Below, piece by piece: positions 3,245 through 45,507 of a stretch of 64,000 nt of DNA. A model generated the notes under the pieces. The model was not told the origin of the DNA. It saw nothing but the letters and a program-made list of their open reading frames with translations, and did no database searches. How positions within the stretch are numbered: position 1 is the stretch's first letter; each line of letters opens with the position of its first letter. The stretch lies in NCBI GenBank assembly GCA_977862235.1, contig OZ374562.1, forward strand, positions 1,922,001 through 1,986,000, written 5' to 3'. This stretch comes from Dudresnaya verticillata. Its lineage: Eukaryota. Position numbers and translations under genes: made by a program.

Positions 3245-3398
3245 CTCCAGCTGGCCGCTCGCTCCAGCTGACCGCTCGCTCCAGCTGGCCGCTCGCTCCA
3301 GCTGACCGCTCGCTCCAGCTGGCCGCTCGCTCCAGCTGGCCGCTCGCTCCAGCTGACCGCTCGCTCAAGCTGGCCGCTCGCTCCAGCTGGCCGCTCGT
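3245..3398. repeat. 17-bp minisatellite (CTCCAGCTGRCCGCTCG), about 9 copies
   Basis: Direct reading of tandem units upstream of the MULE ORF. Confidence 0.9.
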
Positions 3399-6500: not shown

Positions 6501-7102
6501 AATGCGGTTAGTTCAAAACCTCATGAACATCTGCAATGAGGATCAAGGGTCTTACTGCCGTCTTTCACGCATAGACGAGTCCGGGAGGCTGCACGCAATC
6601 GTTTGGGCCTTCTCTGAGTGGAGAGCAGATTATTTCCAGTTCGGGGTTGTCCCTGGGATATCGGTGGACCGCAAGTATAAAGGGAATGAGTTCTTCATGA
6701 ACCTTATCACCTTTAACGGTAGGACGAGCTGCGGCAAGATCTTCACAGTGATGATGGGTTTTATATCGGATGAAACGGTAGAGACCTTCCGCTGGGTGTT
6801 CAGCAAGTTCAAAGATTGCTACTCGGGTATAGTCCCTTGCATCATTGCGATGGACCAGGACGCCGCATGTATGTCCGCATGTCGTACTATACTACCGACA
6901 ACCTACGTTACGTTGGATGAATGGCACGTGAACCAAAATCAAAAAGGTAACGTGATGGCTTATCTCCAGAAGGGCAAGAGACCTGATCTCTATAAGGACA
7001 TGGCAAGAGATTTGTTCAAAATGCGAAGGGCATCCTCCGCGTCATCCTTTGAGCAGCACCGCAATGCGTTTGAGCGAACATACTTTACTGCTTTGGGAGC
7101 AG
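3502..7102 (+). pseudogene. Mutator-like (MULE) transposase fused to an N-terminal Ulp1/C48-like cysteine protease; three in-frame TGA stops; truncated at 7103
   Basis: ORFs 3583-5079, 5212-5469 and 5557-7485 share one frame. GTHWGVLIV and QEDGYSCGFY are C48 protease His and Gln/Cys motifs. Two FAR1/WRKY-like C..C..HxH regions. MULE core SVDRKYKGN...ETVETFRWVF...AMDQDAA...LDEWHV. Confidence 0.85.
5053..5190 (+). repeat. 69-bp in-frame tandem duplication in the Ulp1-MULE linker
   Basis: GCAGCGGCATCACCTCT... at 5053 and 5122; copy 1 has TGA where copy 2 has TCA. Confidence 0.85.
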
Positions 7103-7490
7103 TGTGGTGCAACGGCAAGGGGCCTCCGAAAACACGCCTATCGACCGGGCCACGCAACCGAATTGGCCAACTCCAAAAAGACACTTGGCCGAAGTCGCTA
7201 CTGTACAGCCACGCGGACGGCGGTGGACGCCGGCAGGGAGCCACACGCATGACACGTGGGCCGTACGTATGCACGTGTCAACCACGTGGCCAGCGCAAGG
7301 AAGAGTGGTCATATCTGGACTACAGAGGTGATCTGGATCGGCCAATCAGGATCAAAACGGGATCGGATTACGGAAAAAGGATTTGGCCGCGCCACCATAT
7401 CAAGGAATCAAGCACGAAAAAAATCAAGGGGAATCTAACTGCTACAGCCACTGATCAACTGACAAGTACTCGATTGCGGTTTTAATCACA
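7103..7490 (-). mobile_element. Probable LTR fragment truncating the MULE
   Basis: Begins TGTGGTGCAACG like the family-B LTR end at 17630; no TSD found; right boundary uncertain. Confidence 0.4.
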
Positions 7491-12288: not shown

Positions 12289-15200
12289 CTAGATGCCATC
12301 CCCGCTTCGCTGCCAAATATGCTCTATCAGGTCATGTTTGAGAGACATATAGTCTACTGCGCTCGATATCCTCGTCTCTCTTCTGTCCACCGCTGCAGCC
12401 CATATTCCATCCGTTACTACTTGACCGAGGCCCTCCATTGCGCTTCGAGACTGCCACTCGAACGAGAGGTTCCCAAACATGGCGCGTGCCTCTTCGTGCA
12501 TGGCGACTGACGCTATACCACTACTGTAGCTGTCACGGCGCGCTTCGACGACCATGTTGTGTATTATGATGCACGCCTTCATGACCGTCGCGATGTCGCT
12601 TCTATACCACAGCCTGGATGGACGCTGCAAGATGTGGAAGCGTGCAACAAGAACGCCGAACGCACGCTCGATGTCCTTGCGAACGGCCTCTTGAGCCGCC
12701 GCAAATGCCTTCTCCTTGTTCGTACTGCCCTCTTGAATGGTCTTGACAAAAATAGCCCATCTAGGATAGATACCATCCGCCAAATAGTACGGTAGCGTCC
12801 GTTCTGTGCCTCGAATCTTGTACCGAACGTTGGAAGGGAAATGGCCAGCCAGTATACGTTCTATGGTAGATGAATGGTCCAACACATGTATGTCGTTCAG
12901 CGATCCAGGACTGCCAAAGAAGCAGTGCCATATCGAAATGTGTGATTTATTTAGAGACGCCTCAGTGTCCTAAGTTGTAGCTACGCTACACTATGTGGCA
13001 AGGGAGTACGTCTTCAACCTTCATGCAAACTCTAAAACATATTCGGTACTACATGCTTCCAATGCGATGATTTGCTAACTTGGTTTGCGCTTCTTGGTCG
13101 TTCTGTGCACGGGACTCAAATCCTCGCGTTTGCGCTTCTGACCAACACAGTTTTGGTCATCTAAGACATCCAGAAATGCCTTCAGACTATCTAGGAGTCG
13201 GGCTTGCACGCCCGCATTCCAACGCTTCACACTCAATCCAGACTCAATTCGGGCTTTGTGCAACCTGTAGACCTCGGGACCAAGTCGAGTCTTGAGGACA
13301 TCCGCTTTTCCGGGAAATGACCCACAATACCATCGAATCCCGGCATCTCGCAGCTTACGATCCCTAATGTGTAGAATCGGAACGAATCCAGAGTCGGGAA
13401 CTGGAATGCGCCGCCGACGTTGGCGACACAGGCCCTCCCACGAATCACGGAGATCCTGGTTCCTCATGTCCAGAGGACTCTTATTCTGCGCCCGGAAACT
13501 TCGGAATTCTAACATATCTGTCATGGCGAGCACGTCGCCACAGTTGCGGTGAGCTCGTTTTGTGAGGCGTTTACCAAGACTGCGAAGGCGCAGACGGATA
13601 CGCTGCAACCAGTCCGGCAGCTTGGCCATCTTCAAATGACGTGGTAGGCGCCCGCACCCAAGTGCAAATTCTGCCACTTTGTAGTCCAGCAACTCGAGTT
13701 GATGACTCAAATCGCACTTGCCGGCCGTGTCGATCGGCATCAAATGGGTGCTAAAGTCCGCAACTGGGTAGATATACGTGCGGCAGATGTCCACAAGTCG
13801 TGCGCTAGGCACATATTTGCGGTGTACGCCGACCGCCTTGAGTAAGTTTAGGCGTTGATGAGCCGCCTTAACTCGTTCCAAATTCTTGTCAGGTGCCAGT
13901 TTGGTACCTTTCAGAGTCACTCCCAGGTACTTTGCAGTGTCTACCACGTCAATTTTCTGACCATTCAGGTAGTACATTGCTCGTTTGGTGCAGTTTTCGG
14001 GCTCCAAAACATGGCATTTTGAAGTTCCCCACTGCATACCTTCAAGATCAGCCCATTTCGTGGACGCATCTAAGGCCGTTTGGAGGCCGGTACTAGTCTT
14101 GGATCGGAGCTTGACGTCGTCAGCAAAGATCGTAATGTCGATTTCTTCAGCACTTTCGGAGGCCGACATTGACAAATCCATGAACTCAGGATACGAGTCC
14201 ATGTTGACATTGTACAAAGTCGGACTCGAAGACACGCCTTGAGGCACACCCCGCGACACAATTGCAGTGGTGCCGGTGATATCGCCCTTGGTAACTACTG
14301 TTGCTGGTTGTAACTCCAGAGCGACCATTGCCGCCGTGGTAGGTGACATCTTCTGATTCACTTTCGACATCAACCGCTCGCGGGGTACTGTATCGTATGC
14401 CGACTTCAAGTCGAGCACGGCCGTGTACCGGAATCCAGCTTTTGTGCTGGCTGCATGCCTTAAGATGGCGGTTTCGGTACCAGTTTTCTCACGGAACCCC
14501 AACTGAGTCGGATGAAACTGGTACTCCTTACGAATCATAGACGCGATTGCCTTTGAAAGCATTTGTCGTCCGTGCGACACTAGCGCAATCGGTCGATAGC
14601 TGGTTGGGTCCGATTTGGGACCCCGTTTGTAAATTGGCACCAGCAGGGATGTTTGCCAATCTTGCAATAGGTACCCGAGCTGACTGCATTTCACCCAAAA
14701 GAGTCCCAAGACATGCGCAAAGGACTTTGGGGCGACCTTGAATGCTTCGCTGAAGACTTCATCCGTGCCTGTGGCCTTCTTCGGTTTGGCCTTGACTATA
14801 GCACGGAAAACGTGAGATTCGAAGTTTCGGGAAGTTTCGAAGGGCACAATGGGCGGAATATGTCCTTTTCCAGCCCCTGTCGCGAGGTGTTTTGTAAAGT
14901 TGGCCAGGTCCAACTTCCCAATTGGTTGGTCTCTCCGAGAACCAAGTGGGCCGGATGCGTTTCGGAGCACGGCCTTAACCATTTTGGGACCATCAGTAGG
15001 GTCGGAGGACAGGAGAGCTTCTGTCAAACGCAACTTGCATCGCCGTTTATTGCGATGCACAAGTGCGCGAACCCGTCGATTGAGGGTCTTGTACTGTTCC
15101 CAAGCCTCCGCCATATCCACAGCTCTGCGTCACAGATTGCTTCAAGCACTATGGTGGGCTTCTTCTCTTTACCCTTAAACTGTATAGCCCAGGCAATCGG

Positions 15201-15794
15201 ACAGTTCTTCCATTCCCAGTGCTGGCAGTCTATGGACCCAATGCAACCAGGGAAGCCTCTCGCCTCGTTGATTGCCATGATACGCTTGAGGTCACCTTCT
15301 GTGGGCTCACGAAGGAATTCCTGTCCAAACTCATCAATAATGACCTGGCAGAACTCCTTGAGTGACTGTAGCACAGAGTCCTCAGACATTTCTAGGTACT
15401 CGTCTAGCGCATCTGTCGCAACGCCATATGCCATCATCCGCAGAGCCGCGTTTACTCGTAGAAGCGGATGAATGCCTTCCTTCTTGGCACAGTCGGACCG
15501 TTGAATAAAAATTCTTTTACCACATACTGTACTGTAGATCTTCTCGAAGACGCGGCCTGGGATTCGGAATCTGCGCTCAAAGTTGACCTCGCTGTACTTC
15601 GCTTGAGAACCGAAGTAGTCGCTGCGCAATCGCTGCAGCGCGGCTGCAAATTCTCGACGTTTGTTCTGTTGTTTGCCGAGCTTCGCCCCAGTCCGCCGTG
15701 ACAAGCCCGATTGCGCCTTCTTGATAACTGGCACGATGTCTGTGGCCATCAAATACGAGAAGTTCTCGTCATCACTAGAGTCCTCGTCCTGCAT
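12289..15794 (-). pseudogene. Harbinger transposase split by the LINE (pieces 15794-15110 and 12926-12289)
   Basis: GFPGCIGSIDCQHW...EAICDAELWIW|HCFFGSPGSLNDI...YYLADGIYP...RKDIERAFGVL; the frame rejoins after removing the insert. Confidence 0.92.
12935..15109 (-). mobile_element. 5'-truncated non-LTR retrotransposon (LINE-type RT, ORF ending 13075)
   Basis: YRPIALVS, DLKSAYD, GVPQG and FADD RT motifs; 8-bp TSD GCCATATC (12927-12934 / 15110-15117); AATAAA near the 3' end. Confidence 0.92.
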
Positions 15795-16029
15795 TGTGTC
15801 GAAGTTGCTAGGGCAGGACGAGGAAGGAGCACTGTGGTCCGGATACGGTTAGAAATAAATTCAACCGGTAGAGTTTACACAGTCGTCGTATACACACCCA
15901 AATACCTATCTTCAGACTATTAGATTCACCCAATGAGCGCGGAACATATGGTGAAAAAATGCGCGTTAGAAATATAATTTACCGTACCGGTAAAAACGCT
16001 CTAAGAGCATTTCCGGCTCTGTTACACTT

Positions 16030-16982: not shown

Positions 16983-17629
16983 CTATACCACAGTCGCGTT
17001 ATCGAGGTCGACCGTCTCAGCGTTGGCGGTCTCTGACGCATCTCTCTCGGTTGCGATTCGGTCCGCGTGCCGCAGCAACTCGGGACAGACTTCAAAGATG
17101 AAGTCCCCGAGGGACTGAACCTTATTCAGAACAGTTCGGAACTTGTCAACTCCACCAAACTTGTCCATGCTTTCCAGAAGATCACTCCGCTGGCGCATTC
17201 GCCACGCGATGAAATCATTCACGGCCAAATTCTTGAGAGTCTGAGATACTAGTTTCTGCTCCCAATTCAGGACGGACGATGGCGAGCGCAGTACGGCGCA
17301 GTATTGAGTGCCGCCGTCAACCCCACCTTTGGTTTTTGAGTACAGAGATTGAGAACAGTGCCTAAACAGCTTGAGTGGCGGAAGTGGTCCATTTTCCTTC
17401 ACGCAGGTATTGACGACCTTCCAAAACGACAGACGCTCCTGAATTACACGACGCGAGTCCGAGTCTGCGAATGCTGGGGCGCTCACATCGCTGCAGTGTG
17501 CCCAGGACACTGCCTGCACTGCAACTAGATTCAGCGTGACCAGACACTGCTCAGAAACGAACGTCGGAACTTTGGCCACAGCAGCGTATAAAATTCCTCT
17601 CTCTCCTGTGGCTATGTAAACGACGTACC
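16983..17629 (-). pseudogene. piggyBac-like transposase C-terminal fragment, cut by LTR B
   Basis: LYSKTKGGVDGGTQY resembles piggyBac YNKTKGGVD, followed by W...L.N.AVN.FIAW. Confidence 0.6.
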
Positions 17630-18467
17630 TGTGGTGCAACGCCCGAACAAGGGCGCAACCCCAGAACCAGACTCCGAGTGGTCCTCCCACGGGTTGGTAG
17701 CAGGCGACGGCGGTGAAGACGACGCCGGTTGGGTGGTAGAGCTAGGGACACGGGTTGTGCCCCGGATGGTTGAAACGTGGACGGGTCGACTGTAAACCCC
17801 CGGCCCACGTAGGAGTGCTGTAGTGCACGAAGAACGATGAAGGCGATTACGCCGGTGAGTACTGTTGAAGCCAGGCAGTAGAACGGGGTACATAAGCCCA
17901 AGTCGCGCACGGTGTCGTCACCGGGTGCGAAGGTGGGGGTATCCTCGAGTTCCTAGGCCTGCCTGGCGCTTTACTGTGAGCGGGGTTCACCCCGTATACT
18001 AAGTATCCCCCGCGGGAGATGCGCGCGCGTGTGTGGCGCCGTGCGCTTGACACTTAGCATGCGCGCGCACCGCGAGCTCACTCAAATATCGCGCAAAAAT
18101 ACCTAGCGTAGAAATACTACTACCGCACTGTAAATCAGTGTAATCTAAGGGTGCGCATTGCTGGGGCGCACCCGAGCGAGGATTCCCTCGGATATATTCG
18201 GCGCGCGTGTTACGCGTGTACACGTGGAGACGTGTCGCCCGTGTGTGCTGTTGGCGCGTGCTGTACGGGCGCGCGCGCACCGTGCCAAGGGCGCGTTCCC
18301 CATTGGTCGGATCTCGCACGCGCGGCATCCGCGCACAGGCCCATCCAAGCTGCCGGTAATCGGCGTATGTTATAGTCGCGGGTGCTCCGCGTGTACCGTC
18401 GTCCGCTCACCGCGCGAGCGGGTGTAGCGATATAAAACGGGGTTTTCCCCAGGGGTCTTGCACCACA
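17630..18467 (-). repeat. 3' LTR, family B (838 bp)
   Basis: TGTGGTGCAA...TTGCACCACA termini; reverse complement of 19403-20241. Confidence 0.92.
18431..18437 (+). promoter_or_regulatory. Candidate antisense TATA box in the U3 end of LTR B
   Basis: TATAAAA pointing out of the LTR toward the accessory ORF ATG at 18740. Confidence 0.4.
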
Positions 18468-18481
18468 TCGCCCCCCTCCGA
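18468..18481 (-). other. Polypurine tract
   Basis: GGAGGGGGGCGA immediately 5' of the LTR TG on the minus strand. Confidence 0.8.
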
Positions 18482-18739: not shown

Positions 18740-21700
18740 ATGAGCCAACCGCCGTCGGCAGTGGCGCCGGGTGCGACGGAAGCTGAGGATTTCTCGGAGA
18801 TCCAGCCCAACACGTCGGAGCCTGCGTCCACGTTCGCCCCGGTGCCGCAACCCGCGTTGGCTGCTGCGCACGTGACCGCCGACCTACCGGCCATCCCACG
18901 TCTACCACCGGTTCCTGCCCCGTCTCCATCGGCTCCATTCATGACGTCACCACCTCCGCCAACACCGACGTCGTTGTTACAGGAAATGGGGAATGCCCCG
19001 GTATCAGGGTCCCAATCATCTCATCTGTCGCCGTCGACGTACGCGGCGGCCTCGTCATCGGGGTTTGTCCCCATTCCTGTCGCACCGGCCCCGCCGACCA
19101 TCGAGTACCCGCGTCCGGCGGAGTTCGTCGGCATGGAGGTGGCGCAGGATCTTGACTTGTTTGCGCGTGCACTGTGGTTTCACCCACGCGACTGTCGAGC
19201 GATGAACATCATCGGGCGTTACGGTGTCGGCGGTTACTTGCCAGGGGGTCTCCCCGTCGATGTACTGCAGTCGGAAGACTGGCGCCTCCACGGGGCGATC
19301 CCAATTCACCACCTCAACGACCGGCACCGTCCCCTAGACGTAGTATTCCGCGATTGGGTTCGCCTTGTCTACCGGCGTCATACGAGCACCATCGGTCGTG
19401 GGTGTGGTGCAAGACCCCGGGGGAAAACCCCGTTTTATATCGCTACACCCGCTCGCGCGGTGAGCGGACGACGGTACACGCGGATCACCCGCGACTATAA
19501 CATACGCCGATTACCGGCAGCTTGGATGGGCCTGTGCGCGGATGCCGCGCGTGCGAGATCCGGCCAATGGGGACCGCGCCCTTGGCACGGTGCGCGCGCG
19601 CCCGTACAGCACGCGCCAACAGTACACACGGACGACACGTCTCCACGTGTACACGCGTAACACGCGCGCCGAATATATCCGAGGGAATCCTCGCTCGGGT
19701 GCGCCCCAGCAATGCGCACCCTTAGATTACACTGATTTACAGTGCGGTAGTAGTATTTCTACGCTAGGTATTTTTGCGCGATATTTGAGTGAGCTCGCGG
19801 TGCGCGCGCATGCCAAGTGTCAAGCGCACGGCGCTACACACGCGCGCGCATCTCCCGCGGGGGATACTTAGTATACGGGGTGAGCCTCCCTCACAGTAAA
19901 GCGCCAGGCAGGCCTAGGAACTCGAGGATACCCCCACCTTCGCACCCGGTGACGTCACCGTGCGCGACTTGGGCTTACGTATCCCGTTCTACTGCCTGGC
20001 TTCAACGGCACTCACCGGCGTTATCGCCTTCATTGTTCTACGTGCGCTACAGCCCTCTTACGTGGGCCGGGGGTTTACAGTGGACCCCGTCCACGTCTCA
20101 ACCAGCCGGGGCACACCCCGTGTTCCTAGCTCTACCACCCAACCGGCGTTGGCCTCACCGCCGCCGCCTGCTACCACCCCGTGGGAGGACCACTCGGACT
20201 CTTGTTTTGGGGTTGCGCCCTCGTTCGGGCGTAGCACCACAGTGGGGTCATCGCGCCGGACCTCGGCGTTGATTACGCGGTATACCGCACGAATGGTGAG
20301 GTGGATTACGTGTGGAATCTGGCCGGTTTAGACCTCCCTCAGGCTTGGCGCGGGCGTGAGCCGCGGGTCTCGCAGGCGGCGTTACTATTTGACGTCCAGT
20401 TGCGGAATGAGTTTCGCTACCTCCGCAAGCGCGGTAGCCTCTTTTGGGACAAGATCCGCTTCGAACGTCGTGAACGCTCACGTCTCGGCATCTTTATTCC
20501 CTATCCCCACGTCGAAGCTTCCCTCTTCAGAATGGTGTACCGCCGACGGTACTACATCGGCATACCGCTCGCCTGGGCATCAGTCGAAACCTGCGAGGGC
20601 TTCCTCGTAGAGTTGCCCAACGTGTTCGGGTATTGCATGAGCGAGTTCTTACGGAACCCGAACACGGGGTTGTGGACGGTGGCCTACACCGAATTCATCG
20701 CGAAGATCACCACGCATTGGCTTTGGGAGACGTATGATACCCTGCGCTTGTGGTTCTTACCTCCGACGGTGACGTCCCTTCTAGATGAGTTGGACCTCCG
20801 CACCGTGCTCGGTGGGCAAAGTAACGACGACGAACTTCGCAGATTACTGCAGCTTCATAGCACTATTGATTGGGACGATCCCGCGGTGGTGCCGCTGTCA
20901 AATTACAAACGCAGTAATCTGCGGCGTAACTTTTCGCCGGGTCGGCGTCACCCCACCTGCGGAGGTTTTGTCTGGTATGACCCCTGGCGACGCCAGCTCG
21001 TTGGCGAACACGAAGCGCGGTTTCACCGCGAACACCCGGTGCCGATGCCGGCGGATTATCCCACCGACTACCTGTACGATGCGATGGAGCAGGGTGTTGA
21101 TGAGGAGGGTAGCGGAGATTTCCCCGATGGTTATAACGTCCGCTTTTCGGGTCCCGACGTCTCTGCTCCCCCGACGTCATATGCCGATTTGGACGGCCCG
21201 CGGTCCCACGCACAACGCGAGTTGCGCGAGGGTGCGGAGTCGTCAGCTATGGGCATGGTTGTTCGGGATGCTACTGCTTCATCGCCGGAGAGAACTCCGA
21301 GGTTGCCTGATGCGCCGCTGGTCGATGCAACCGCAGAGGCCGTCACCCCGATTAACACGGGTGCCACTGGTGGCACACCCGGGCCCACCCGGCTCGCTAT
21401 GGGTGACTTTTTGCAGCGTTCCGGGGTTGAACTCGACTTGAATCTCTCGGAGCGTGAGCTCGGAGAGCGGCTTAGCGCTATTCTCACGGCTACTGCACAC
21501 GAAGCTGGCGATGGTGGGGCCCGTTCACACGCGCCACCTGCGATGGAGTCGACTCCGGTTAACAGGGCGTCCAACCCCCTCGGGTACAGAGCGGCGATGG
21601 GCACGTAGTTGGCTCCAGGGGCCGCGAGCGCGACTGCAGGTCATGAACCCATGGACGTAGCTCCGGGGAACCCGCCGAATGAGGCGGAGTTCGCCCTAGA

Positions 21701-21791
21701 GAAGGGTGGCGAGGCGACGGACACCAATGCTGAGCCCGGCGGTGATATCACTGGTGATCCCATGTTTGCATGGATGAAGCGCACGGATTAG
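18740..21791 (+). CDS. Antisense accessory protein of chromovirus B (~674 aa to 21608, ~735 aa if the TAG is a mutation), interrupted by a solo LTR; function unknown
   Basis: Removing 19403-20241 plus one TSD copy gives a continuous frame ...TIGRG-VIAPDLGVDYAVYRTNGEVDYVWN...; Pro/Ser-rich N-terminus, Trp-rich globular core, acidic tail. Confidence 0.8.
19403..20241 (+). mobile_element. Solo LTR, family B
   Basis: TG...CA termini; TSD GTGGG (19398-19402 / 20242-20246). Confidence 0.93.
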
Positions 21792-21850
21792 CCGCGTATA
21801 TTGGCGTCGGTGCCAGTGCCGACGGGCCCACTGTGAAGCATATAGTCGTA

Positions 21851-23480
21851 GTCGAAGCGGGCGATCCGCGTGGAAATGTTCGTTGTTTGGTCAACGTGAA
21901 ATAAAAACCAACTTGCTTAGTTATCCGTGTTTTGGACACTCATTGAGTAACAACGTTGCTGGTTCAACTTCCAAGGTAGGTTCGACGAGTTCCAACGTTA
22001 GGTAGAATCCGAGCGGTCTAGCCGCGGGTGAATACTCGTTGCTTGTCAACGCCCAAACCATGAGCTTATCCTGGCGAAGCATGCTCACGTTAGTGTAGCG
22101 GAGGCGGTTGATCCGCGCGAAGGTTAGTCAAAATGAATACGCTCGATTGCACGTTAGGCGCCCGAGGGCAAGACCCGTTAACGAGACTCACGACCATTTC
22201 GCATCGGACACTAACAGTCGTTGAGCGGGACTTCCGCGCCTCGGTACGTGTTGGCTAGCAACGCTGCTAAGTCACCCTTCCAGCTTTGCCACCAGGCGAG
22301 GAGCTCTATAAGGTGTGGCGAGAGCGGAGTCGTGGGGATCCACTGTATCATTACCATGTTGCCACGCCGTTTGGTCATTCGTGTTGTCTGAACGGTACGT
22401 ATCGCATGAAGCGGTTGCCCGCGTAAAGCAACGCGATGTCATTAGCGTTAGCATCCGTGTCCGTGGTCGTAATTCAAGCGGTCTGCCCGCGTGGAGATTC
22501 CCGCTGATGATCAGCGTGAAGACAGCCAACGCTTGTCTCGCCACTGAACCTTGAGGGGGAACGATCTTATTGGGTCCATATTGATGCCCGTTCTTGCGGA
22601 GGCTCCGCGTTTTGCTATCAGCGGACGTAATCCCTCCGCGTATCGGTACCCGTTCGCGGGCAGAATAAGTCATTAATACGATCGTCGTGTCCACGTTAGG
22701 GTCGACGCACTGGCGCATTTCCAAGCTATGCGGTGATGGCCGGATCACGCGGGGAGCCACGATCGCTGTTAGTGCGTCGTTGCTACTCGTTGATGTACAA
22801 CGTCGTCTTGTCTGGTTTGCCGTAGCAGGTGACGGTTTTCGCATTTGCGTAGTAGCGGTCTTCGTGTGGTGCCACAGTAACAATTTTCTTCATAGGCCAT
22901 GGTAGATTATTCGTCGTATGTCAGCGTTATTAAAATCACGCCTTCTGGGCGCAGGGTCTCATTCGCCCCGTAGGTGATCTTGGCCTCACATAGGGTGCCA
23001 TTACGGCACCGAATTAGCGGTGGTCGAAGCGGTCCGACCGCGTTAAAGTCCGCTGTTGGGCAACGTATGGGAGTCACCTCCCCCGACATCGAGTCCCGTT
23101 GGGCGGTCATCAGTGTATTTGCGTCGTGGGGAATGCCTCGCCTGGAGTTCACACGGGGCGTAGCAACAACAGTCATGAAGAGAGCGGTCTGCCCGCGTGA
23201 TGATGTTCGTTGGTAGACAACCTGAGTCGGACCGGACGGGTTAGCTTAAAACTTCGCCTCGTGCCATAGCTGGCGTTAGTTCCCGACACCATGGATCCTT
23301 CGCGTGATGATATTGGTCGTAACGCTCCATCCGCATAATGATACTCGTTGGTCCTCAACGTCGTTTCATCTTTCCTGCCGTAGGGGGCGTCGGCCGGCCT
23401 GTAATATTGCGTGTTCGCGACGCGCGGTGGTAACGGCCGACGTGTGGACTACGGTTTGCTATTCGTTGTGATCCAACGCG
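21851..23480 (+). repeat. Interspaced array of a bipartite palindromic motif GCGG-N5-CCGCG-N10-CGTTG-N5-CAACG (~12 full or partial units)
   Basis: Second-half motif starts at 21881, 22037, 22249, 22434, 22502, 22651, 22788, 22912, 23051, 23208, 23346 and 23464; spacers are unique. Confidence 0.8.
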
Positions 23481-23535: not shown

Positions 23536-23829
23536 TCAACCCACCATGGCGCGGTGTAAGTCGTTGGGCGTTCCCAGCCTAGCCCTACGGCAATAGCGCA
23601 GGACCTGACTGCGAGGTAGGTTTTCGATCGGCTCGAGTGTGTTCGCGGAACTTGGATATCCAAACCACTTGAGCTCGTAGAGAGTACCCTCGTTAGCGTA
23701 TTCGTGGTTAACCACTTTCTCGATGACAAACATTGTACGCGGAGCTCCCGTAGTGGGGTGTACAGTAGATGGTGCCGTTACTGTAGAGCGAGGATTGGCC
23801 TCAGCATGAGGAGTCGTGGGTATGACCAC
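23536..23829 (-). CDS. Chromodomain at the integrase C-terminus (fragment)
   Basis: FVIEKVVNH...YELKWFGYPSSANTLEPIENL. Confidence 0.85.
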   Translation of the reverse strand: MVIPTTPHAEANPRSTVTAPSTVHPTTGAPRTMFVIEKVVNHEYANEGTLYELKWFGYPSSANTLEPIENLPRSQVLRYCRRARLGTPNDLHRAMVG

Positions 23830-24939
23830 TGGATTTTGATCGATGTCACGCGCCGTGCTGTGGTGGCGCCACCCGTGTTCTGTCGTGGGGTCGACCCCGT
23901 TGTGGTTTGGCGCAAGCGTGCACTCCGACGCGGCTGAGTGGCGATTACACGAGGATTAGCTTCGCTGCGTGCCGTCGTTGACGAGCTCGGCTCGCCTCGT
24001 TGGTCCTCGGAGGCGTCTCCGCTCTTGTCGACACCGTCCACGCTTGCGGCTCGCCTGAGCTGTCTGGTCTGTGCACCGTCCGACGACGAGTCATGAGAGC
24101 TGTAGAAGCGGTCCTCGCTGCGTGGTTGAAAGAAGGCATCACTCACCAGTCTAGGGCAAATGCGCGCGCTAATCACGTGCGCTTGACAGCACGATTACGC
24201 GCGCGCGCACAAACCGCCCCAAACGCGCCCGTTGGGGGGTTTCGGTGAGAGTACAACTGGCGCCAAATGTGCTTAAAACAATCTCAGTAAATAATGTATC
24301 GTGCAGAAAATGGGGTCTTAATTCATTGAACGTGCCAAAAGGCATCCACCGCTGTGATTTGTAGGGGCGAAAGTTTGTCCTGCTGAGTAGAAAGGCCAAG
24401 TTTGGAATCATAAACCAAGAGCTCCGAGCTAGTTCTATCATGAGAATGGAAAATATTTTTAAATATAGAAGATTTCGTTGCGAAAGTCGACGTCAAAAGT
24501 GCGAAACTTTCCCTAAAATGCGATAGTTTCGCATCTCTCAGACCATGGCTGGGTAAGATGTTTCCGAATTTTCGAACATTCGCACTTTCCCGGCCTTCCA
24601 GGGTTCTGTTCTTCGAGAACAAAAGCATGTTTTTCAGAAAGGCACCAATACGGCGCAACTTATGCCATATTAATATATGCAAAATCGAAACTTTCGCGAA
24701 ACTTTCGCCGGCAAAGATGTTACAAACGAAATGATTTTATGGGCACATAATTATTGCACTCCGAGATTCTATTTTGGCCAACGATGCGACGCTCAGAAGG
24801 CGGGTTACTGCACAAGCTTGATATGGGCCTTCTTGTTCCTTGAGACCTTGTCTGGAACCGTCTGCAAGAAGTCCTGGTGAACCTCTCGTGCTTTCAGAGC
24901 ATCGCACTCAAGGGCTGTGACCATCGTGGGACTGCAAAG

Positions 24940-31666: not shown

Positions 31667-32751
31667 ATTCCATACATCCAATTACAGAACTTAATAATTG
31701 CGTCCGCACCCAATGCCTTTTTCACGCGTAATGCTTCTCCTGACCATTTCCCTGCTTCTCTGACATTTTCGCACTAGTTGAGCGAGCTGCAGAGTCGTCT
31801 TTCGTAGCTTTTCAATCTCTGTGCGTACGCCAGCAATGATATTGGGGAAATCCCCCTGTAAGCCATCCCAGCTGACAGTTTTCCGCTACCAGCAAGGATG
31901 GCCCCCTCACAACAACAACGCGCATACGTGCACACGTGTGCCCCCTCGGCGCACAGTGTCAACCCACACTGCCAAGAGGCTGACAGTGGATAGTTTTACT
32001 AGATAATTACAGACTTGTGCGCGCCACGCAATGCCAAGTGGCGCGCCCCCTTCCACTACCTTAATCCGCCACGAAGGCGCATCCGCCTCGTACATAGTAT
32101 ATTAGGGCCCTGAGGTGCGCCCTCGTACAATAAACAGGGAAGCTTGGGCCCAGCGAGACATACCCTCCTACCCTATCGGCTCTGTCGCTAGGCTGGACTC
32201 CAGTACGTACGCTACCCGTCTTCATCGTACAGAATCCTGTTTTTCCTTTATTTTTCCTTTTTTCTTTCCTTTCTGGGGTAACCCTCTTCTTGGTCTCATA
32301 GTGTTTTACAGTCGCGCTACGGGGCTATTCCCCTGCTCTACCACTACCCCTACCTCACGCTACCACCGGGCCCACCAACTACACGAGGTGCATCCTCTTT
32401 TCAACCCAGTGGATTTGCACCACACCGACGAGGGTGCGGTTAATGCGGCGGACATCACTCTCCAGGCGACGAGAGACAGGCTGTTGAGACGGATGTGTGG
32501 GAGCTTGATTTCCATGGCGTCCAGGCATAGGAGGCTGGCCGACAGGACTGTTGGGTAGCTACCCAGGTGAGCGGAAAGGGCGGCAAGATACGGTCGAAGC
32601 GAATCTGGGGAAGAGGCGGCGTGAGCAGCGGCGGGAGAGATGACATGGGCGGAAGGGTCGGAGATAAGCGATAAGAGGCGAATGACACCGCCGAACTGGG
32701 TTCCCGGCGAAGCAGCCGAAGTAAACCTTGAATAGCTGGCAACTGCGTCAG

Positions 32752-33287
32752 TGTAGTATAGACGTCGGGTCGATCCGACGTCTAATATCGCTGGTCTGAA
32801 GCCGCCACACAGACCCGTCGATGGGTAGCTGTTGTGTGTGGTAGAGTGGTGTCGGTCGCGTGCGCCCCCGCAGGTGCGGATCGACGGCGTCGATGCCGGA
32901 GCGGGCACGGGGCGTACCGTACGCGGGTAGGCAGCGGCCGGATCCCAGCGTCCCTGTAGAAGGGCGGCACGAAGCCGACGGAAAGGAAAAGGAAAGGGAA
33001 AAAGCTTAGCGAGGCAAGGGGAAAAAGGGAAACCGCCCGCTGGCGTAAGGCAAAGGGATCGAACCCGAAGAGGCTGGGGGCAAGCTTCAGCGCGAGCTGT
33101 TGCTTCCCCGGTTTACTGAGCCGTCGATGGCCGACGGCCTTAAATACCCTACGGTATGTACACTACGGCTACTCTACAGTAGGTGCGCCCCACAACACCA
33201 ACGCGGGAGTTGTGCGAGCGCGCGCCCATACACGTGTCGAAACGTCCGGGTAATGACTACCCGTGGGCGCGCGCGGGGCGTAACGGG
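32752..33287 (-). repeat. LTR C copy 1 (U3 side truncated, more diverged)
   Basis: Matches 45508-46043 with more mismatches than copy 2 does. Confidence 0.88.
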
Positions 33288-34061
33288 TGTAGTATAGCTG
33301 TCAGCACACTATCAGCAGCGGCTGTAAGGTATGCTGGCCGCGCCGCACTGTAATGGTGCACACGATGACGCCCGCTGGCGAGTCGTGATTGGGCAGCGTG
33401 CCCTTAGCTTTTTCGTTGAATTAGTAGCGGTCGACCGCATTGCTGCCGGCAGCGGCCGCGCGCCGTGCCGCACACGGCGCGCCCCTGTGAAGCTCTCCGG
33501 CATCGAGCCGTTGAGAGGGCCGCTGCCCGTTACGCCCCGCGCGCGCCCACGGGTAACCGTTACCCGGACGTATCGACACGTGTATGGGCGCGCGCTCGCA
33601 CACCTCCCGCGTTGGTGTTGAGGGGCGCACCTACTGTAGAAGTAGTCGTAGTGCACATAGTGTAGGGTATTTAAGACCGTCGGCCATCGACGGCTCAGTA
33701 AACCGGGCAAGCAACAGCTCGCGCTGAAGCTTGCCCCCAGCCTTTTCGGGTTCGATCCCTTTTCCTTACGCCAGCGGGCGGTTTCCCCTTTTCCCCTTGC
33801 CTCGCTAGGCTTTCCCCTTTCCTTTTCCTTTCCGTCGGCTTCGTGCCGCCCTTCGACAGGGACGCTGGGATCCGGCCGCTGCCTACCCGCGTACGGTACG
33901 CCCCGTGCGCGCTCCGGCATCGACGCCGTCGATCCGCACCTGCGGGGCGCACACGGCCGACACCGCTCTACCAACCCCAACAGCTACCCATCGACGGGTC
34001 TGTGTGGCGGCTTCGGACCAGCACGTATCAGACGTCGGATCGACCCGACGTCTATACTACA
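33288..34061 (+). repeat. LTR C copy 2 (774 bp, inverted)
   Basis: TGTAGTATAG...CTATACTACA; near-identical reverse complement of 45508-46281. Confidence 0.92.
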
Positions 34062-35940
34062 CTCGCGGAATTCGACTTCCAGATCGAGTACCGTCCGGGT
34101 AGGGTACACCATGTGCCGGACGCGCTGTCCCGCCTGGTGAGGCCTCGACGGCAGCAAGAGGAGGTTGACGACGACGTCCCTACCTACGACCCCCCGGTGG
34201 TCGACGGCCAGAAGGAGGGTGCCTCGAGTACCGAACCCAAGGCACCGTCGGTCTTGCTGACCACGCGGTCCCAAGCCAACGCGTCGACGCGGAAGGCGCC
34301 GGATCGACCGGCTGCAGTGGGCGGCACTGGCAGCGAAGCCAAGGAGCCCTCAGACAGCGACGAGCCACCGGGGCTTGCCGACGACGAAGCCTGGGACGAC
34401 TGCGACGACGTCGACCTTTTCGACCTTGGCCGCATCGACGCGAGCCAAGAGCCGACGGACCTCACCCGGGTCGAACCGGTGAAGCTCCCTTCACCACTAA
34501 CCGTCGAGGAATTGGTGGATGCGCAGCGGCGCGATTCTTTTTGCCAAACAGTGTTGGCACGGCAGTCCCGTCGACGGGACAGCCACTTCTTCGAAGACGA
34601 GGGCGGGCTCCTGTGCCGGCGTCACCCCGTCATCTCCTCGCTGGAGCAAATAGTGGTGCCCGAAGCGCTACAGCCGCGGCTTCTCACGCTCGCGCACCAC
34701 TCCCTCCTGGCTGGCCACCCTGGCCAGAACAGGATGTTCTACACGCTCCGCGAGAGCTACTACTGGCCACACATGTCAGCGGACATAGCCATGACAGTTC
34801 GGAACTGTCGGCACTGTGCCAGGAGCCGCATACGCTTGCGGAGGTCCCTTCATCGGTTGAAGTTGTTCCCGGCCACGAGGCCGCTCGAGTCGCTCGCGAT
34901 CGATATCCTAGGGCCGCTGCCCAAGACGAAGTCAGGAAAGCGTCCTGCTCGTCATGACGGATCGATTCACGAAGCTGACTCAAGTAGCGCCGCTGCGCAC
35001 CATCACAGCGTACCACGTCGCAGTGGCATTCTGTGAGAGGTGGATCTTCCACTATGAACCACCAAGGTCTCTGTTGTCCGACAACGGGAAGCAATTCACC
35101 TCTAAGTTCTTTCAGGCCGTGTGCCGCTACCTCGGACTGAACAACGTGTTCACGTCCGCCTACCACCCACAGGCGAACGGTCAGGTTGAGGGCTACAACC
35201 GGACCGTCATGGCCATGTTGATGAATTACATCAACGATCACCAGGACGACTGGGATTGATACGCAGCGGCGTTGACGTATTCCTACAACTGCCATGTCCA
35301 TCGCACGACGCGGACGACACCCTTCAGCCTCGTGCTGTCCCGGCCGCCGCCGGAGTTCACTAAGTTTCATAAGGCAGCGGCCAGACCGAAACCTAGTGAG
35401 GACGTGCGCGCGGACTTCCTCAAGCGGCTCGACGCCGCTTCGCAAGCGCATCGAGCGCTCTCGACAAAACGCAGCGGCGTTACAAGAAAGTATGTCATTG
35501 TCAGAAAAGTCAACTCCCGCATTCGAGCGGGATACTACGTCTTCATCGCCGCGAGCGACGGGGTTAAGAAACCCAAGAAGCTCCAGAGCCCAGCGATAGG
35601 GCCCTACCGCGTGCTGCTTAACGACAAGCGCACGCTGTTCATCGACAGAGGCGGCTTGGTCGAACGCATCGCAGCGGACCGCGCCGTCTACTGTCCCCCG
35701 CCGCTGTGGGAGGATACTGCGCAGCGCAGCGCCTACTTACCCACCACTGAGGAACTCGCGTCCGAAGCCGTCGATGGCCCGCGGTTCGTGGTAGATAAGG
35801 TCCTTGACCACGGTACAGCCGACGATGGCACGCTCGTGTTCAAGGTGAAGTGGACCGGCTATCGCAAGCCGACGTGGGAGCCACGTTATCATCTCCCCGA
35901 GGAGATGGTGAGCCACTATTTCGCATCGCAGCGGCGGTGA
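34062..35940 (+). pseudogene. RNase H end, integrase (HHCC, DDE) and chromodomain, frameshifted
   Basis: LAEFDFQIEYRPG...DALSR; AHH...GHPG...YYWP...CRHC; IDILGPLP; SDNGKQF; YHPQANGQVE; FKVKWTGY..PTWEP. Confidence 0.93.
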
Positions 35941-37304
35941 AACACCAACCGGCTCGAAGCCCTTCGCTCCTCCTCATAACCCCTCGGCGGGGCGCCTCGC
36001 GCTTGAGGAGGGGGCCGCAGGCATTCGTTGCCTTTTTGCAAAGGAAATCGATGCCTCACCCTACCCTGCACTGGGCACCGAGCCCAGACAGGTCACCCTT
36101 GCGCCAGCAGCAGCGGCAGTAGCGCAAGAGGGGGCAGCAGAACGCTGATTCCGGCGCATCGATGCGCGGAGGGCAGCTGCCAGCTAACCAAGCCTGCGGC
36201 AGCGGCCCCGGGCTGGTTGCACGCACTCGCAAGCGGCGAGGAGACGCAGACGGTACCTCGCCTTCGCGCGTGACAGGCGTCGACGCCTCACGCACGCAAG
36301 GTAAGGGGCGCTGACCAGCGGCTACCGAAGCCGCTCACCAGCGCCGCGCACGCGGCGCTACCGTCGCTCACTCCAGGCAACCCTACGCGCCAGCCGCAGC
36401 GGCTGCTGAGCGAGGAGAGGTCACACCAGCGTTAGTGCGGAGCGGGCGCGTCGACGCGCCCAAGGCCGTCGCTGTCGAAGCGAAGTGGTGTGGGACAAAG
36501 GGCAGCGGCCCGATCGCCACTTCACTCGGGTGCACCGGAGTGCCGTTGCACTCGATGTGCAACGGCACCCCAAAAGCGAGCGTCACTTTTGGCGTGCGCC
36601 TCGGCGCGGGGCGCACGCAGCGCATCGAGCGCGAAAAGGGTTCCGGCTACAGTACGTACTGTAGCCGCGGGTCGGGAAACACCCAACCAGGCCAGCGGGC
36701 CGGAAGGCAACAGCCAATGCAAGGGGTTGCGAAAAATCCACAGCCAACGATTGGCTATAATTTGGGCGCAAACCGCCTCCCGGTGGGAGCAACAGCAGCG
36801 GCTGATCGAGCAGCCAGAAGCGGCGCGCCGCCGGCAAGTGGGTGCGAGGCAGCGGCCTCGCCAAAGCTAGCCGTCGCGGCACCAGGCGTCCAAGACGGGC
36901 GCGCAAGGGCAGCCACTGTGGTCTCCCCCATGCCAAGGCGGCATGCCGCGCAGCGGCGCCGGGGCACCACATGGGATCGGCACGCTTGCCTATTGCCCCT
37001 GAGCAGCGGCTCACGCAAGCCCCGCACCGAGACGACCGCTGTCGTGACGCAGTGGCGACGCACGCGGGCTCGATGCGCGCGCGCGCGCAGCACTCACCTT
37101 GGGCAGCGGTCCGACGTGGTGAGCTGCTGCGCCAGCGAACGCTCTCGCCACAAATAGGTTCGCATCGACGCGGCCCGAAGCCATATCCCACCCCTTTCCC
37201 TTTTAACATGTCTAACGACGCAGCGGCGTAACTGGACTAAAAGGCGCAGCGGCGCTCTAATCGCTGGGTGCCGCGGCACCCGCGGATACTATGCGTCGAT
37301 CGCA
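35941..37304 (+). repeat. Hairpin-rich non-coding array of alternating GCAGCGGC and GCRTCGAYGC motifs (~100-nt period)
   Basis: GCAGCGG(C) at 36110, 36199, 36396, 36502, 36795, 36849, 36950, 37003, 37103, 37220 and 37246; TCGA palindromes at 36156, 36277, 36448, 37162 and others. Confidence 0.65.
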
Positions 37305-40207
37305 CTATTGGGCAACGTTGACCCCGGCCCCCGCTTCCGGCTGAGCAGTCATCGACGACGCACAGCCAGGAGCGAAGGGGTCATAACCGGTCGCCTCGGC
37401 CGCAGCGCGCGGCTGAGTTAGCGCGGCAGCGCCCGCCGCGGTACCCGACGCGTGGTACACCGCAGCGGCGCCAGCGGCAGCGGCCACTAACCCAGCAGGG
37501 CTCACTTGCCCCACTGGGGGACCATACCCCTGCGGCATGTAGCCCGGGGGGACGGGCGCAGCGGCGCCCGGCTGCTGTGGGACTCCACTGCCCTGCACCA
37601 CCATTGACGGGGTGTAGCCGGAAGGGCCCCAGGGGAGCATCTGGCCAGCGGGCCCGACGGCATAAGGTAGCATCGGTTGCTGCGCAGCCTGCGCTGGCGC
37701 ATAGGACGGCATCGGCTGCTGCGTCGGCGCCAGCATCGGGGGCGGCTGGTACTCCTCTCGTGGCCGCTTCCGAGGGACCCGACGACTGGGGATGAATGGG
37801 CAGCGCGCCTCAACTCTCCCTGCAGTCGTTGCGCATCGTGCGCAAACCTGTCCCGCTCGGTGCGGTAGCGAAGGGCGATGGCGTTCGCAGCGGCGAGCTC
37901 GTCATGCGTTCCCGTTAGATGGGCCGCAAAGGCGGCAACGAGGGTGCGCAGCGGCGCTTCCTCACCGAACTGTACCAGTGCAGCGGCGCGGCGTACATTT
38001 TGGTCGCTCCAGAGGCTCGCTGCCATCGGCACATCGAGCGCATCGGTTGTGGGCGGCGGCACATAGGCAGCCACCGCCATCGATGGCGGTGGGCCATACC
38101 TCACCGCCTGCCTCGACGGCGTATAGGCAACGGGCAGCGGGTCGACTGCTGCCTGCTTCTCCTGACCTCAGTCCATGGCAGCGGCCGGGGGAGGTGGTGC
38201 CACAGCTCGAGGTGCTGGTGCCGCGGCACGCGGCACCGGTGGCAAGTAGGGCTCGGCCTCCGAGGCCATAACGGCAGCGGCCGACTTGGAAGCCCCACCT
38301 AGGCCCCGACGGGCGCGCGGCTTAGCGGCCCGCTCGACGCGGGCCATGTCCGCCATCGAGGCGTAGCCACGATCCTTCCGCGGCGCGCGTGCGCGTTGGA
38401 TCTTGTGAAAGGTCCCCGCCACTGGGTTGACCCCGCAAATGAACGCATCGACGCGTGTTGCAAAGTGGCGGCGACGGGTGTGCTTCTCTCTGGCAGCGGC
38501 CACGAAGCGCGTCGTGTTCAGCAGCTGCTTTAACTCGAACGTCACCGAAGTGTTGTCCGGGCCTGCCGCGCCTCGGAGGCGTGGGAAGCCCGGGCGCCCG
38601 CTGCGCCACAGTACATCGAGGTACACCAAAATGCGGTCGTCGAGGACCCAGCAAATATCCTTCGATAGGATGTCGGAGGCGTAGCGACGCCCCACCTCAA
38701 AGGCATACTCGTCGGAGCGCCTAGCGAGGAGCTCTCGACGAACTGCCTCCTTTCCCGCCGCGGCGTAGTGGAAATATCGCTCGATGCTGGGCCACGGGAC
38801 GATCATGCCAGCGGGCACGTCCCGGTGCGAGTACCACTCCGCGGAGGGAAACCACGACGCGTCGAGCGCCGGGTGCAAGCGGGCACCCGTGGTGATGAGC
38901 CCATCACCGGGGGCGCGGCAGGTGGCCCAGTCCCGCTCCCCCATGCACAGCCCGAGGATGCGGCGGGCGCAGTTGGCATCGGCCAGACCGCGCGCCTCCT
39001 CCGGCGTCTCCTCGATGGGGACGTCCCTCAACCAATCCAACGAGGCCGCGAGGGGCTTGTGGGACCCATCGACGGGTTTCACAAAGAGGGCTTCGGCGCC
39101 CTTATCCACGATCAGCAGCTGCTTGATCGTGGTGACGAACGAAACGTCACACGGTAGGCCGTTCGGTACGAGCCATACCGGCGATGCGGGCATGAAGGCG
39201 TTGTTGGCAGCGGCCCCGCCATCGTCGCTCGCATCTGCCACGCGCAGGAGACGTTGGACGTCAATCCTTTGCACGGGCAACCGACGTCACTGGTCCAGCG
39301 GGATCTGGTGGGGCGGTGCCTCCCACGCGAAGACAGTGGGAGGCAATGCGGCTGCATTGGGCACCGCGACACCGAGTCGCTGGGGCCCAATGGTCAGAGA
39401 CACCCCTCGCATGGTGATCACCGGCAGAGGGGGAGCCATGGCAGCGGCCGATGACGACTCAATGGCAGCGGCCACGCTTGTGCCAGGGGCGGCCGACGCC
39501 CCTGCTCCGGGGTCGCCTTGCGCCGATGCGCTGAGGCCCCGGCGGGGCACGAATGGAGCCGCAGCGGGCGGCATCCTGCTCCCCCTTGACGCGGAGGCCG
39601 TCGACGACCCCGTCAGATCAAGGGCACGAGCCACGGGTGGCGCATCGACGCGCGGAGCAGCAAAGGGCACAGCGACTGGAGCCGCCTCCTCTGGGCATGG
39701 GGCGGCAGCGGCCGCCCCACTCCGGTCCAAGCCACCCAAACCTCGCAGCGGCGTGTCTTGGGTGGTCACCTCGACCTCCTCGTAGCTCGGCAGAGGTCGT
39801 GTAGCCTTACCCCGGGCCAGCGCAGCGGCTGCTGGCTCCGGAGGCACTCGGGCGGGAGACGTGTCAACCGCAGCGGCGGGACGCATCTCCGATGTCTTAG
39901 CGGGCGCAGCGGCGCCCGCTCCAATTTGGTCAGCAGCTGCTGGACCAATATGCGCAGCGGCGCCGACCCCAGCCGCCGGAGCAGCAGCGAGGCCACTGGG
40001 CACCGAAGCCGCCACCGCAGCGGGCGGTGGGCATGGCAGCGCAGCGGCGCTTGCCCCCAGCGCATCCTGCGCCTGGGGTTGTGGGGCATCTGCCACCGCT
40101 TCCGCCGGTGCAGCCGTCGATGGCGCACCAGCGGGCAGCGACGGCGTGGTTGCGGGCGCCCCTTCGTCAGGGGCGCCCCGGGTGGCAGACGAGCGCGTCT
40201 TGGCCAT
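37305..40207 (-). pseudogene. Antisense accessory protein of chromovirus C (~900-960 codons; two TGA stops, one frameshift); function unknown
   Basis: ORFs 39287-40207, 38168-39280 and 37502-38104 share one frame; Ala/Pro-rich ends and a globular core; candidate TATA (ATATAA, minus) at 40371-40376. Confidence 0.75.
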
Positions 40208-40489
40208 ACCGCACGTCGACGTGGGCACTCGCTTCGAGCGAAGGGGGCGGAGAAGGCGTAGCACGATACACACACGACAGCGGTCACTGGTGTGCTGAAG
40301 CGTGTGGGCGAAGGGGGGATCGTGGAGAGCGATACCCGCAACCTCCCCAGCGCCGACTCCGCGTTGATCCTTATATGCGCAGCGGCGCAGACGGGCGGGC
40401 ACGCGCATACACCGTCGACGGGCGCGCGTGCCAATCACTGTCAACGGCCACTCGGGATTTCCATCGTGGCCCCGGGAAACCTCAACGGC

Positions 40490-45440: not shown

Positions 45441-45493
45441 CCTTTACTTCGATCGCGTCGATGCGAGAAGTACTTGGGTCTCGACGACTTCTA

Positions 45494-45506
45494 GGTCGGG
45501 AGACCA
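45494..45506 (-). other. Primer binding site (TGGTCTCCCGACC)
   Basis: TGG-initiated sequence 1 nt after the 5' LTR end; cognate tRNA not identified. Confidence 0.65.
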
Positions 45507-45507
45507 G

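Follow-up and report, generated by a model that had tools for sequence, protein, structure and literature searches.

CRISPR arrays consist of near-identical direct repeats separated by spacers of uniform length. Their spacers stem from mobile elements or viruses, cas genes lie close by, and the arrays are processed into unit-length RNAs. TIGR arrays, as outlined in PMC12045711, are built of regular edge/loop repeats with box C/D motifs, in units of ~36 nt, and are accompanied by a Nop-domain protein. Among LTR retrotransposons, the Retand/Grande elements of the Tat clade carry an antisense TRP28 ORF in the region between pol and the 3′ LTR, and tandem arrays, the function of which is unexplained, occur in about half of them. 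The antisense ORFs of Retand elements, for whose products DNA binding is predicted, share this region with the repeat arrays (both points in the account given in PMC11963269). In the VANDAL transposons of Arabidopsis, the anti-silencing protein VANC binds short motifs of the YAGTATTAY type that have built up in non-coding repeats (in outline, PMC5735166; also 10.64898/2026.08.24.746577).

Here we describe an array of two short palindromes, dyad A (AGCGG-N5-CCGCG) and dyad B (CGTTG-N5-CAACG), found in a 64-kb window, i.e., the whole stretch of DNA that was analyzed, to which all positions refer. The array resembles CRISPR and TIGR loci in that conserved short elements alternate with variable sequence beside a protein gene. 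In contrast to CRISPR, it contains no near-identical repeats, its spacers are not of uniform length, no Cas partner was detected, and the setting is a eukaryotic retroelement. The CRISPR likeness proposed in the initial annotation is therefore not retained: the repeats are not identical, half units occur, the spacing varies from 53 to 265 nt, and the spacers had no match within the 64-kb window or in 50,697 phage records. The absence of cas genes, which the same annotation had stated, was borne out by the lack of any Cas domain in the 34 ORFs scanned of 92 (≥150 aa), those flanking the array included. The array differs from TIGR-Tas in being irregular and in having boxes C and D together in only one of seven units. 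No Nop domain was detected in the neighboring antisense-encoded protein, for which searches of Pfam and of known folds gave no match at all.

The likeness to Retand/Grande, in the described outline of those elements, lies in a long region between pol and the 3′ LTR, where an accessory ORF in antisense orientation occurs together with an array of repeats specific to the family. Retand elements are non-chromoviruses of flowering plants, whereas the element described here has a chromodomain and is probably red-algal. Furthermore, it has no TRP28 match, and its array consists of interspaced dyads rather than a head-to-tail tandem array. With VANDAL/VANC it shares a family-specific short motif that has accumulated in a non-coding region of the element, beside an accessory protein gene. 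VANDALs are Mutator-like DNA transposons and not LTR retrotransposons, and VANC motifs are 8–9-bp non-palindromic words in tandem repeats that act on DNA methylation, whereas the motifs considered here are spaced dyads and putative sites. No likeness of the antisense-encoded protein to VANC was seen. The design is thus a variant of an antisense accessory gene combined with a repeat array, and is not CRISPR-like.

The array lies within a chromodomain Gypsy element

The array is hosted by a minus-strand Ty3/Gypsy LTR retrotransposon with a chromodomain (Table 1). An LTR-retrotransposon context had already been proposed, and it is confirmed by an LTR with TG...CA ends, a polypurine tract, a 5-bp target duplication, and a chromodomain that ends pol (Pfam PF00385 (Chromo), E=1.2e-9), all of which are as in chromoviruses. 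As the purine tract beside the LTR is on the minus strand, this LTR is the 3′ LTR of a minus-strand element. To our knowledge, the textbook chromovirus layout does not include an antisense gene in a 3.7-kb insert that separates pol from the 3′ LTR.

The accessory ORF (18740–21608) is antisense to pol and is located between the 3′ LTR and the array. Since the stop codon of pol is on one side of the array and that of the antisense ORF on the other, the array lies between two convergent stop codons. Each of the two LTR copies carries one perfect A dyad, 40 bp upstream of a TATAAAA motif. The initial annotation had overlooked the flanking antisense gene, the LTR dyad, and a parallel case in a second element of the window.

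Table 1. Positions of the features of the element and its dyad array in the 64-kb window.
Feature	Position	Strand	Details
3′ LTR	17629..18467	-	839 bp, TG...CA ends; inverted copy of 19403-20242, 802/839 aligned bases identical
Single perfect A-type dyad in LTR	18377..18391	.	CGCGG-N5-CCGCG; second at 19479-19493 in solo LTR
TATAAAA in LTR, candidate promoter element	18431..18437	+	40 bp downstream of dyad; faces antisense ORF
Polypurine tract adjoining 3′ LTR	18468..18479	-	11/12 purines on minus strand
Accessory ORF, 5′ part	18740..19402	+	Pro/Ala-rich start, then profile positions 12-115; hmmsearch E=1.5e-20
Solo LTR, same family, opposite orientation	19403..20242	+	Target duplication GTGGG (5 bp); splits accessory ORF
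Accessory ORF, 3′ part	20243..21608	+	Globular core, profile positions 118-508, E=4e-116; acidic low-complexity tail
Dyad array (A and B), non-coding	21782..23478	.	7 full and 8 half units, plus recurring CGTTA/ACGTTAG
Full unit 1	21856..21896	+	B spacer 6 nt
Full unit 2	22012..22051	+	Sole exact consensus match
Full unit 3	22224..22263	+	Left B arm TGTTG
Full unit 4	22477..22516	+	CGCTG/CAGCG double change
Full unit 5	23028..23065	+	8-nt linker; CGCTG vs CAACG, uncompensated
Full unit 6	23183..23222	+	17 consecutive bases in common with unit 4
Unit 7	23321..23360	+	Decayed left A arm, remainder in register
pol C-terminal remnant	23536..24150	-	Low-complexity linker (frameshifted, stop-containing) followed by chromodomain at ~23608-23730; stop 23536-23538

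This copy of the element is dead: pol is lost past ~24150, and the RT and integrase core are missing. Neither the rest of gag-pol nor a 5′ LTR was found by self-comparison of the 64-kb window. An LTR-like stretch at ~24175–24210 is not regarded as established, since its score of 30 was also reached by the best of 300 shuffles.

Protein scans confirmed no related locus in metagenome contigs, GTDB genomes or viral contigs, and these collections yielded no further copy of the element. Scans with the DNA pattern gave 17 viral and at least 120 metagenome loci, with one match per locus. Among the loci listed, none had more than two A+B units within 1.5 kb (looser pattern), and none matched the element by blastn or by the accessory-protein profile. 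These single matches were therefore taken as chance occurrences.

Composition of the array

In the ~1.7-kb array, dyads A and B stand in a fixed arrangement, 10 nt apart. A mismatch-tolerant scan of the 64 kb detected seven full units within the array and one weak match outside it. Together with A-only and B-only half units, this gives 15 positions in all. The initial annotation had counted about 12 units, mostly 118–157 nt apart (range 68–212); these figures are superseded, with measured distances of 53–265 nt over the 15 positions and a single exact match to the 20-base consensus (at 22012). The distances cluster near 75 and 120 nt. Other particulars of that annotation were correct: the GCGG starts given at 21857, 22013, 22225, 22478, 23029 and 23184 all belong to complete or near-complete units, the linker is 10 nt long in six of the seven full units and 8 nt in one, and the CGCTG/CAGCG double change is present at 22502–22516.

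Within positions 21851–23480, GCGG-N5-CCGC (dyad A) and GTTG-N5/6-CAAC (dyad B) were each found 8 times, against a shuffle mean of 0.07 for either, and the combination A+B was found 6 times, against a shuffle mean of 0. None of 2000 dinucleotide shuffles reached the counts for A, B or A+B, and motif frequency is thus above that of shuffled controls. To allow for the post-hoc choice of motif, the best 4-mer dyad with a spacer of 3–10 was also sought, which gave 8 copies, whereas 300 shuffles averaged 1.7 and never exceeded 3; this control should be read with caution, as an unrelated GCGC-N4-GCGC dyad also occurs 8 times in 36801–38430 (68% GC). The pentamer TGATG is over-represented in the array (7 vs 1.6). 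Tandem Repeats Finder reported no tandem repeat within it. The dyad array is a real, non-random and unusual feature. The array also contains an open frame of 205 codons on the minus strand (22272–22889), which was rejected as a gene, with no Pfam/NCBIfam match and low Atlas recognition (911).

DNA dyads or RNA hairpins

Fixed arms and a fixed spacer length, combined with variable centers, are the signature of dimeric DNA-binding proteins, such as those with Gal4-type CGG-Nn-CCG sites or LexA. Ligands that are RNA hairpins usually have conserved loops and covarying stems. The arms of the units are fixed, the centers are 5 bp long, the half-site centers are 10 bp apart, and lone half units occur. 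For these reasons, recognition of double-stranded DNA by dimeric proteins fits better.

The other reading, which we regard as fairly improbable, is that the units are twin RNA stem-loops in the 3′ region common to the genomic RNA and the antisense mRNA. They would serve in packaging, dimerisation, export, 3′-end formation or protection, and would perhaps be bound by Gag or by the antisense-encoded protein. If perfect, a dyad would be able to fold on either of the convergent transcripts, and the array starts ~60 nt past the pol stop. When isolated, units 1, 3 and 4 and the minus-strand unit 5 adopt the twin hairpin, and three of 14 single-unit folds have z near −2. In an alignment of nine units, 90% of the 81 arm cells can pair. 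The B stems also speak for the RNA reading, since on the minus strand (the sense strand of the element) four of eight form with a probability above 0.9 (0.92–1.0).

Against this reading, the average folding of 120-nt segments (14 per strand) was equal to that of shuffled sequences on both strands (mean z +0.10 on the plus and −0.12 on the minus strand). In context, A stems formed with a mean probability of 0.33 and 0.41, and B stems with one of 0.31 and 0.57. The stems are just 4–5 bp long and their loops are variable. Despite their conservation, the outer A and G in dyad A pair in only one of eight dyads on the plus strand and in none of eight on the minus strand. The nine-unit alignment has two double changes, one of which comes from a decayed arm, and 25 of 500 shuffles had as many; the one clean compensatory change is not significant. 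Arm variants show no strand preference: unit 3 keeps its pairing only on the plus strand and unit 5 only on the minus strand, and in unit 6 and the dyad at 21954 pairing is broken on both strands. The array had no Rfam match at E up to 5 and none at the gathering score, with one weak unrelated match outside it. A preference for the term hairpin, used in the initial annotation, over DNA dyad is accordingly unsupported. Readings of the array as tRNA or as an Rfam family were rejected, as was a C/D-box or K-turn reading, with boxes C and D together in a single unit.

Conservation and origin of the units

The four arms have a mean pairwise identity of 0.87–0.93, compared to 0.29 and 0.25 in the 20-nt flanks and 0.255 for random sequence, although the arm values are partly circular because the units were selected via their arms. 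These and the following identities refer to the six units with a 10-nt linker; the unit with the 8-nt linker was excluded. As the arms are far better kept than the flanks, selection on dyad symmetry or on half-site sequences is indicated. From the initial proposal of selection on structure or dyad symmetry, the part on dyad symmetry or half-sites stands, and the part on RNA structure lacks support (z ~0).

The loops do not vary as freely as first stated. The linker has a mean pairwise identity of 0.44 (p=0.0002), the A loop one of 0.39 (p=0.02) and the B loop one of 0.32 (p=0.09), again against 0.255 for random sequence. The run of 17 bases shared by units 4 (22477) and 6 (23183) includes a loop, and their flanks have no homology. 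The spacers, which had been described as unrelated, are nearly so and do not align beyond a slight excess. Of 66 pairs each, 6 on the same strand and 3 on opposite strands had p<0.05, with 3.3 expected in either case (mononucleotide shuffles), and several similar pairs owe their similarity to a third recurring motif, ACGTTAG. The residual identity in loop and linker, the 17-base run and the non-aligning spacers together lead to the conclusion that the ~40-bp unit has a common origin, with the arms held and the spacers randomised.

A rival reading, which we consider quite unlikely, is that the array is functionless decay. The residual identity in linker and A loop, the bases common to units 4 and 6, the clustering of the spacings and the death of the element copy itself all suit such decay. 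Unexplained tandem arrays occur in about half of the recently active Retand elements as well (in the account of PMC11963269). On the other hand, uniform decay would not leave four separate arms so well preserved beside randomised flanks, and the dyad is found again in the LTR. The blank result of Tandem Repeats Finder and the spacers that do not align also speak against an old tandem repeat.

The antisense-encoded protein

The core domain of the antisense-encoded protein retrieved 443 cluster representatives (50% identity) at E up to 0.001, 36 of them at 1e-30. Among ten clusters looked up, the sole named member came from the red alga Agarophyton chilense (CAN8068179.1) and is annotated as "unnamed protein product"; it is on this basis that the element is held to be probably red-algal. 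We infer that the relatives of this protein are also retrotransposon genes. No Pfam or NCBIfam family was above the cut-off for the protein, and for TRP28 (PF04195) there was no Pfam match in the ORF halves or in 16 relatives, where one weak unrelated row was the only result.

Structures were predicted with AlphaFold2 for a 280-residue part of the protein (pLDDT 96, pTM 0.93) and for an intact relative, P0002 (411-residue model; pLDDT 92, pTM 0.89). Foldseek searches of PDB and BFVD gave no match for the antisense-encoded protein at E 0.001. In a wide structural search, the best Z for the 280-residue model was 2.2, and for the 411-residue P0002 model none of 48,161 solved chains reached Z ≥2, in a search where models of >400 residues can miss single domains. 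The best hit of a PDB sequence search (E=0.01) fell on the acidic tail, and the first match in the Atlas (0.86) serves as a lead only. The family is large, unnamed and, in these searches, without a fold match. The confidently predicted 385-residue domain is a candidate for a new fold, whatever its ligand.

Conserved residues of the family include R117, E121, F159, R160, E175, R176, R179, E216, Y231 and W246 (P0002 numbering). Residues 151–205 form a conserved basic stretch with a mean net charge of +6, and R176, R179 and R117 are conserved at 0.91–0.96. The core is about neutral overall (net −1), and no known DNA-binding fold or domain was found in the protein by Pfam, NCBIfam and fold searches.

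A second Gypsy family in the window

A second Gypsy family occupies 32750–46281 and is partly inverted. It has the same order as the array-bearing element, i.e., an integrase, a non-coding stretch and an antisense ORF that starts at ~40208, with a TATA-like motif near it at ~40370. The integrase has an Integrase_H2C2 match and closes with a chromodomain-like stretch at 35940, as read from the sequence. The antisense ORFs of the two elements were not accepted as homologous: they have one short weak similarity, with an hhalign probability of 0.5%, below that of shuffled controls.

In 34064–40460, the motif GCAGCGGC occurs 35 times in forward and 2 times in reverse orientation. The forward copies are divided among the integrase (5), the non-coding stretch (10) and the ORF (20), against 0.4, 1.7 and 3.8 expected under an order-3 Markov model. 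Codon choice also enriches the motif, with 12 of 21 in-frame Ala-Ala-Ala triplets using these codons. The two families have a layout in common, and each has accumulated a motif of its own; by analogy, this resembles the VANDAL pattern, where related families differ in their motif as far as they are described. The core AGCGG is common to GCAGCGGC and dyad A, which could instead indicate a factor supplied by the host and not by the elements.

Discussion

The function of the array is read here from anatomy, and from one dead copy. We put at about even the chance that the array serves, in double-stranded DNA, as a series of sites to which dimeric proteins bind in a sequence-specific manner, and through which they would regulate the integrated element. 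Each dyad would be read as two half-sites with centers 10 bp apart, i.e., one helical turn, and A and B, with centers 25 bp apart, would make up a composite site. Old local duplications and short template switches may have spread the units; selection would then have kept the arms while the spacers were randomised. In the manner of VANC in VANDALs, binding would maintain transcription of the element or guard it against silencing by the host. The LTR dyad near TATAAAA, the lone half units, the GCAGCGGC parallel and the basic stretch in the antisense-encoded protein were counted in favor of DNA sites. Counted against them were the need for two specificities with two dyads, the neutral core of the protein and the minus-strand B stems that form, as well as the strong strand bias of GCAGCGGC, which would also suit a motif at the RNA level.

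If the dyads are DNA sites, host factors are the somewhat more probable binders, and the antisense-encoded protein of the element itself is a plausible but less probable one. CGG-N5-CCG is the format of Zn2Cys6 sites, and a Zn2Cys6 protein was considered as a candidate binder.

The kind of silencing that would be countered may differ from that in VANDALs. [quoted passage not shown] VANC-type demethylation may thus not apply, and counter-silencing could, by extrapolation from C. merolae, concern H3K27me3.

Very unlikely, in our estimate, is that the dyads are recombination or integration sites, where the array would act as a decoy or preferred target and the 5-bp center would correspond to the integrase stagger. 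The family does make a 5-bp target duplication, both dyads have 5-bp centers, and same-family LTRs stand in opposite orientation in both Gypsy elements of the window. The array nevertheless does not include the one readable insertion (the solo LTR at 19403), which is flanked by neither A nor B arms. No scar of an insertion was visible within the array, and none of the 34 ORFs scanned had a recombinase domain. A CRISPR- or TIGR-like guide array, with the units as processing signals and the spacers as acquired guides for the antisense-encoded protein, is highly improbable: the interspaced layout, the nearly unrelated spacers, a neighboring gene for a protein without known fold, the excess of TGATG and the box C-like and box D-like motifs of unit 6 would suit it, but the spacing is irregular with half units, box C-like RTGATGA occurs at just two places in the array and both boxes at one unit of seven, no Nop, Cas, RuvC or HNH likeness was found in the Pfam and fold searches, and the spacers match nothing in the window or the phage records.

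In the array described here, the repeat has been reduced to its conserved arms, so that the candidate signal is directly readable and testable. Its partner gene defines a large unnamed family (the 443 clusters described above) with a candidate new fold. A literature search, with most subscription journals and the Repbase entries outside its scope, gave no description of such an array or ORF in red algae. LTR elements can exceed half of the genome in these algae, with 55% in Gracilaria vermiculophylla (as given in PMC12966425). We hold it to be unlikely that the protein and the array form a cognate regulatory pair. In its wider form, to which we assign a similarly low probability, red-algal Gypsy elements would encode their own regulator, an antisense-encoded protein of new fold with hundreds of subfamilies, together with a matching array of sites between pol and the gene. 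This would be a counterpart of VANC that evolved independently, with Polycomb perhaps replacing DNA methylation as the silencer. If the protein and the array are indeed such a pair, they would constitute a retrotransposon-encoded counter-silencing system in red algae.

A second Gypsy element with the layout of the first

The second Gypsy family (32750-46281) has the same layout as the first element, the chromodomain LTR retrotransposon that holds the dyad array: the end of pol is followed by a non-coding stretch and an antisense ORF, for which no homologue was detected. The motif GCAGCGGC was strongly enriched and strand-biased in this second element, and the codon choice of the element also bears it. 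The element is internally rearranged: its minus strand carries gag-RT, and its plus strand carries the end of RNase H and the integrase. Its partial LTR is adjoined by a same-family LTR in the opposite orientation (33288-34063, 32750-33287, and 45506-46281); each of the two Gypsy elements therefore contains an LTR from its own family in inverted orientation. A third LTR-like repeat is about 72% alike to the LTR of the second family, and a 104-bp tandem duplication lies close to the start of its first copy.

Features of the Gypsy elements and the third LTR-like repeat
Feature	Position	Strand	Remarks
Third LTR-like repeat, two copies	1252-2192 and 30832-31666		Copies 94-97% identical
Outward-facing dyad, CCGCTC-N7-GCGAGCGG-like arrangement	18404-18422		In LTR of first Gypsy element; AGCGG core
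Antisense ORF, second Gypsy element	about 40208 to about 37430	minus	Interrupted by stops
Primer-binding-site-like sequence, second Gypsy element	45489-45505	minus	Begins TGG; immediately follows 5' LTR

The AGCGG core and the dyad array

The AGCGG/CCGCT core of the two Gypsy motifs (dyad A of the array, AGCGG-N5-CCGCG, and GCAGCGGC) also occurs within a 17-bp tandem repeat of nine copies and a 69-bp duplication (3241-3397 and 5053-5192), close to a MULE transposase (5470-7485). The outward-facing dyad is flanked on one side by the A dyad of the LTR (CGCGG-N5-CCGCG) and on the other by the TATA-like motif. Within the array, bases 2 and 4 of the 5-nt A centre were complementary in six of eight dyads (21856-23197). 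These bases cannot pair in a hairpin across a single base, and their complementarity possibly reflects extended dyad symmetry, or else chance. The array also contains a stop-free frame of 205 codons on the minus strand (22272-22889), which showed low recognition and no family match and is probably fortuitous.

Other mobile elements

Upstream of the MULE transposase, a 505-codon ORF (3562-5079) without a Pfam match carries a protease-like stretch (His, Asp, Gln-x-Asp-Gly-x-Ser-Cys-Gly), which we take to resemble Ulp1. An insertion bearing an RT (13075-15129) interrupts a Harbinger-type transposase (Plant_tran, 12289-15848). DNA transposons and retroelements lie nested within the window.
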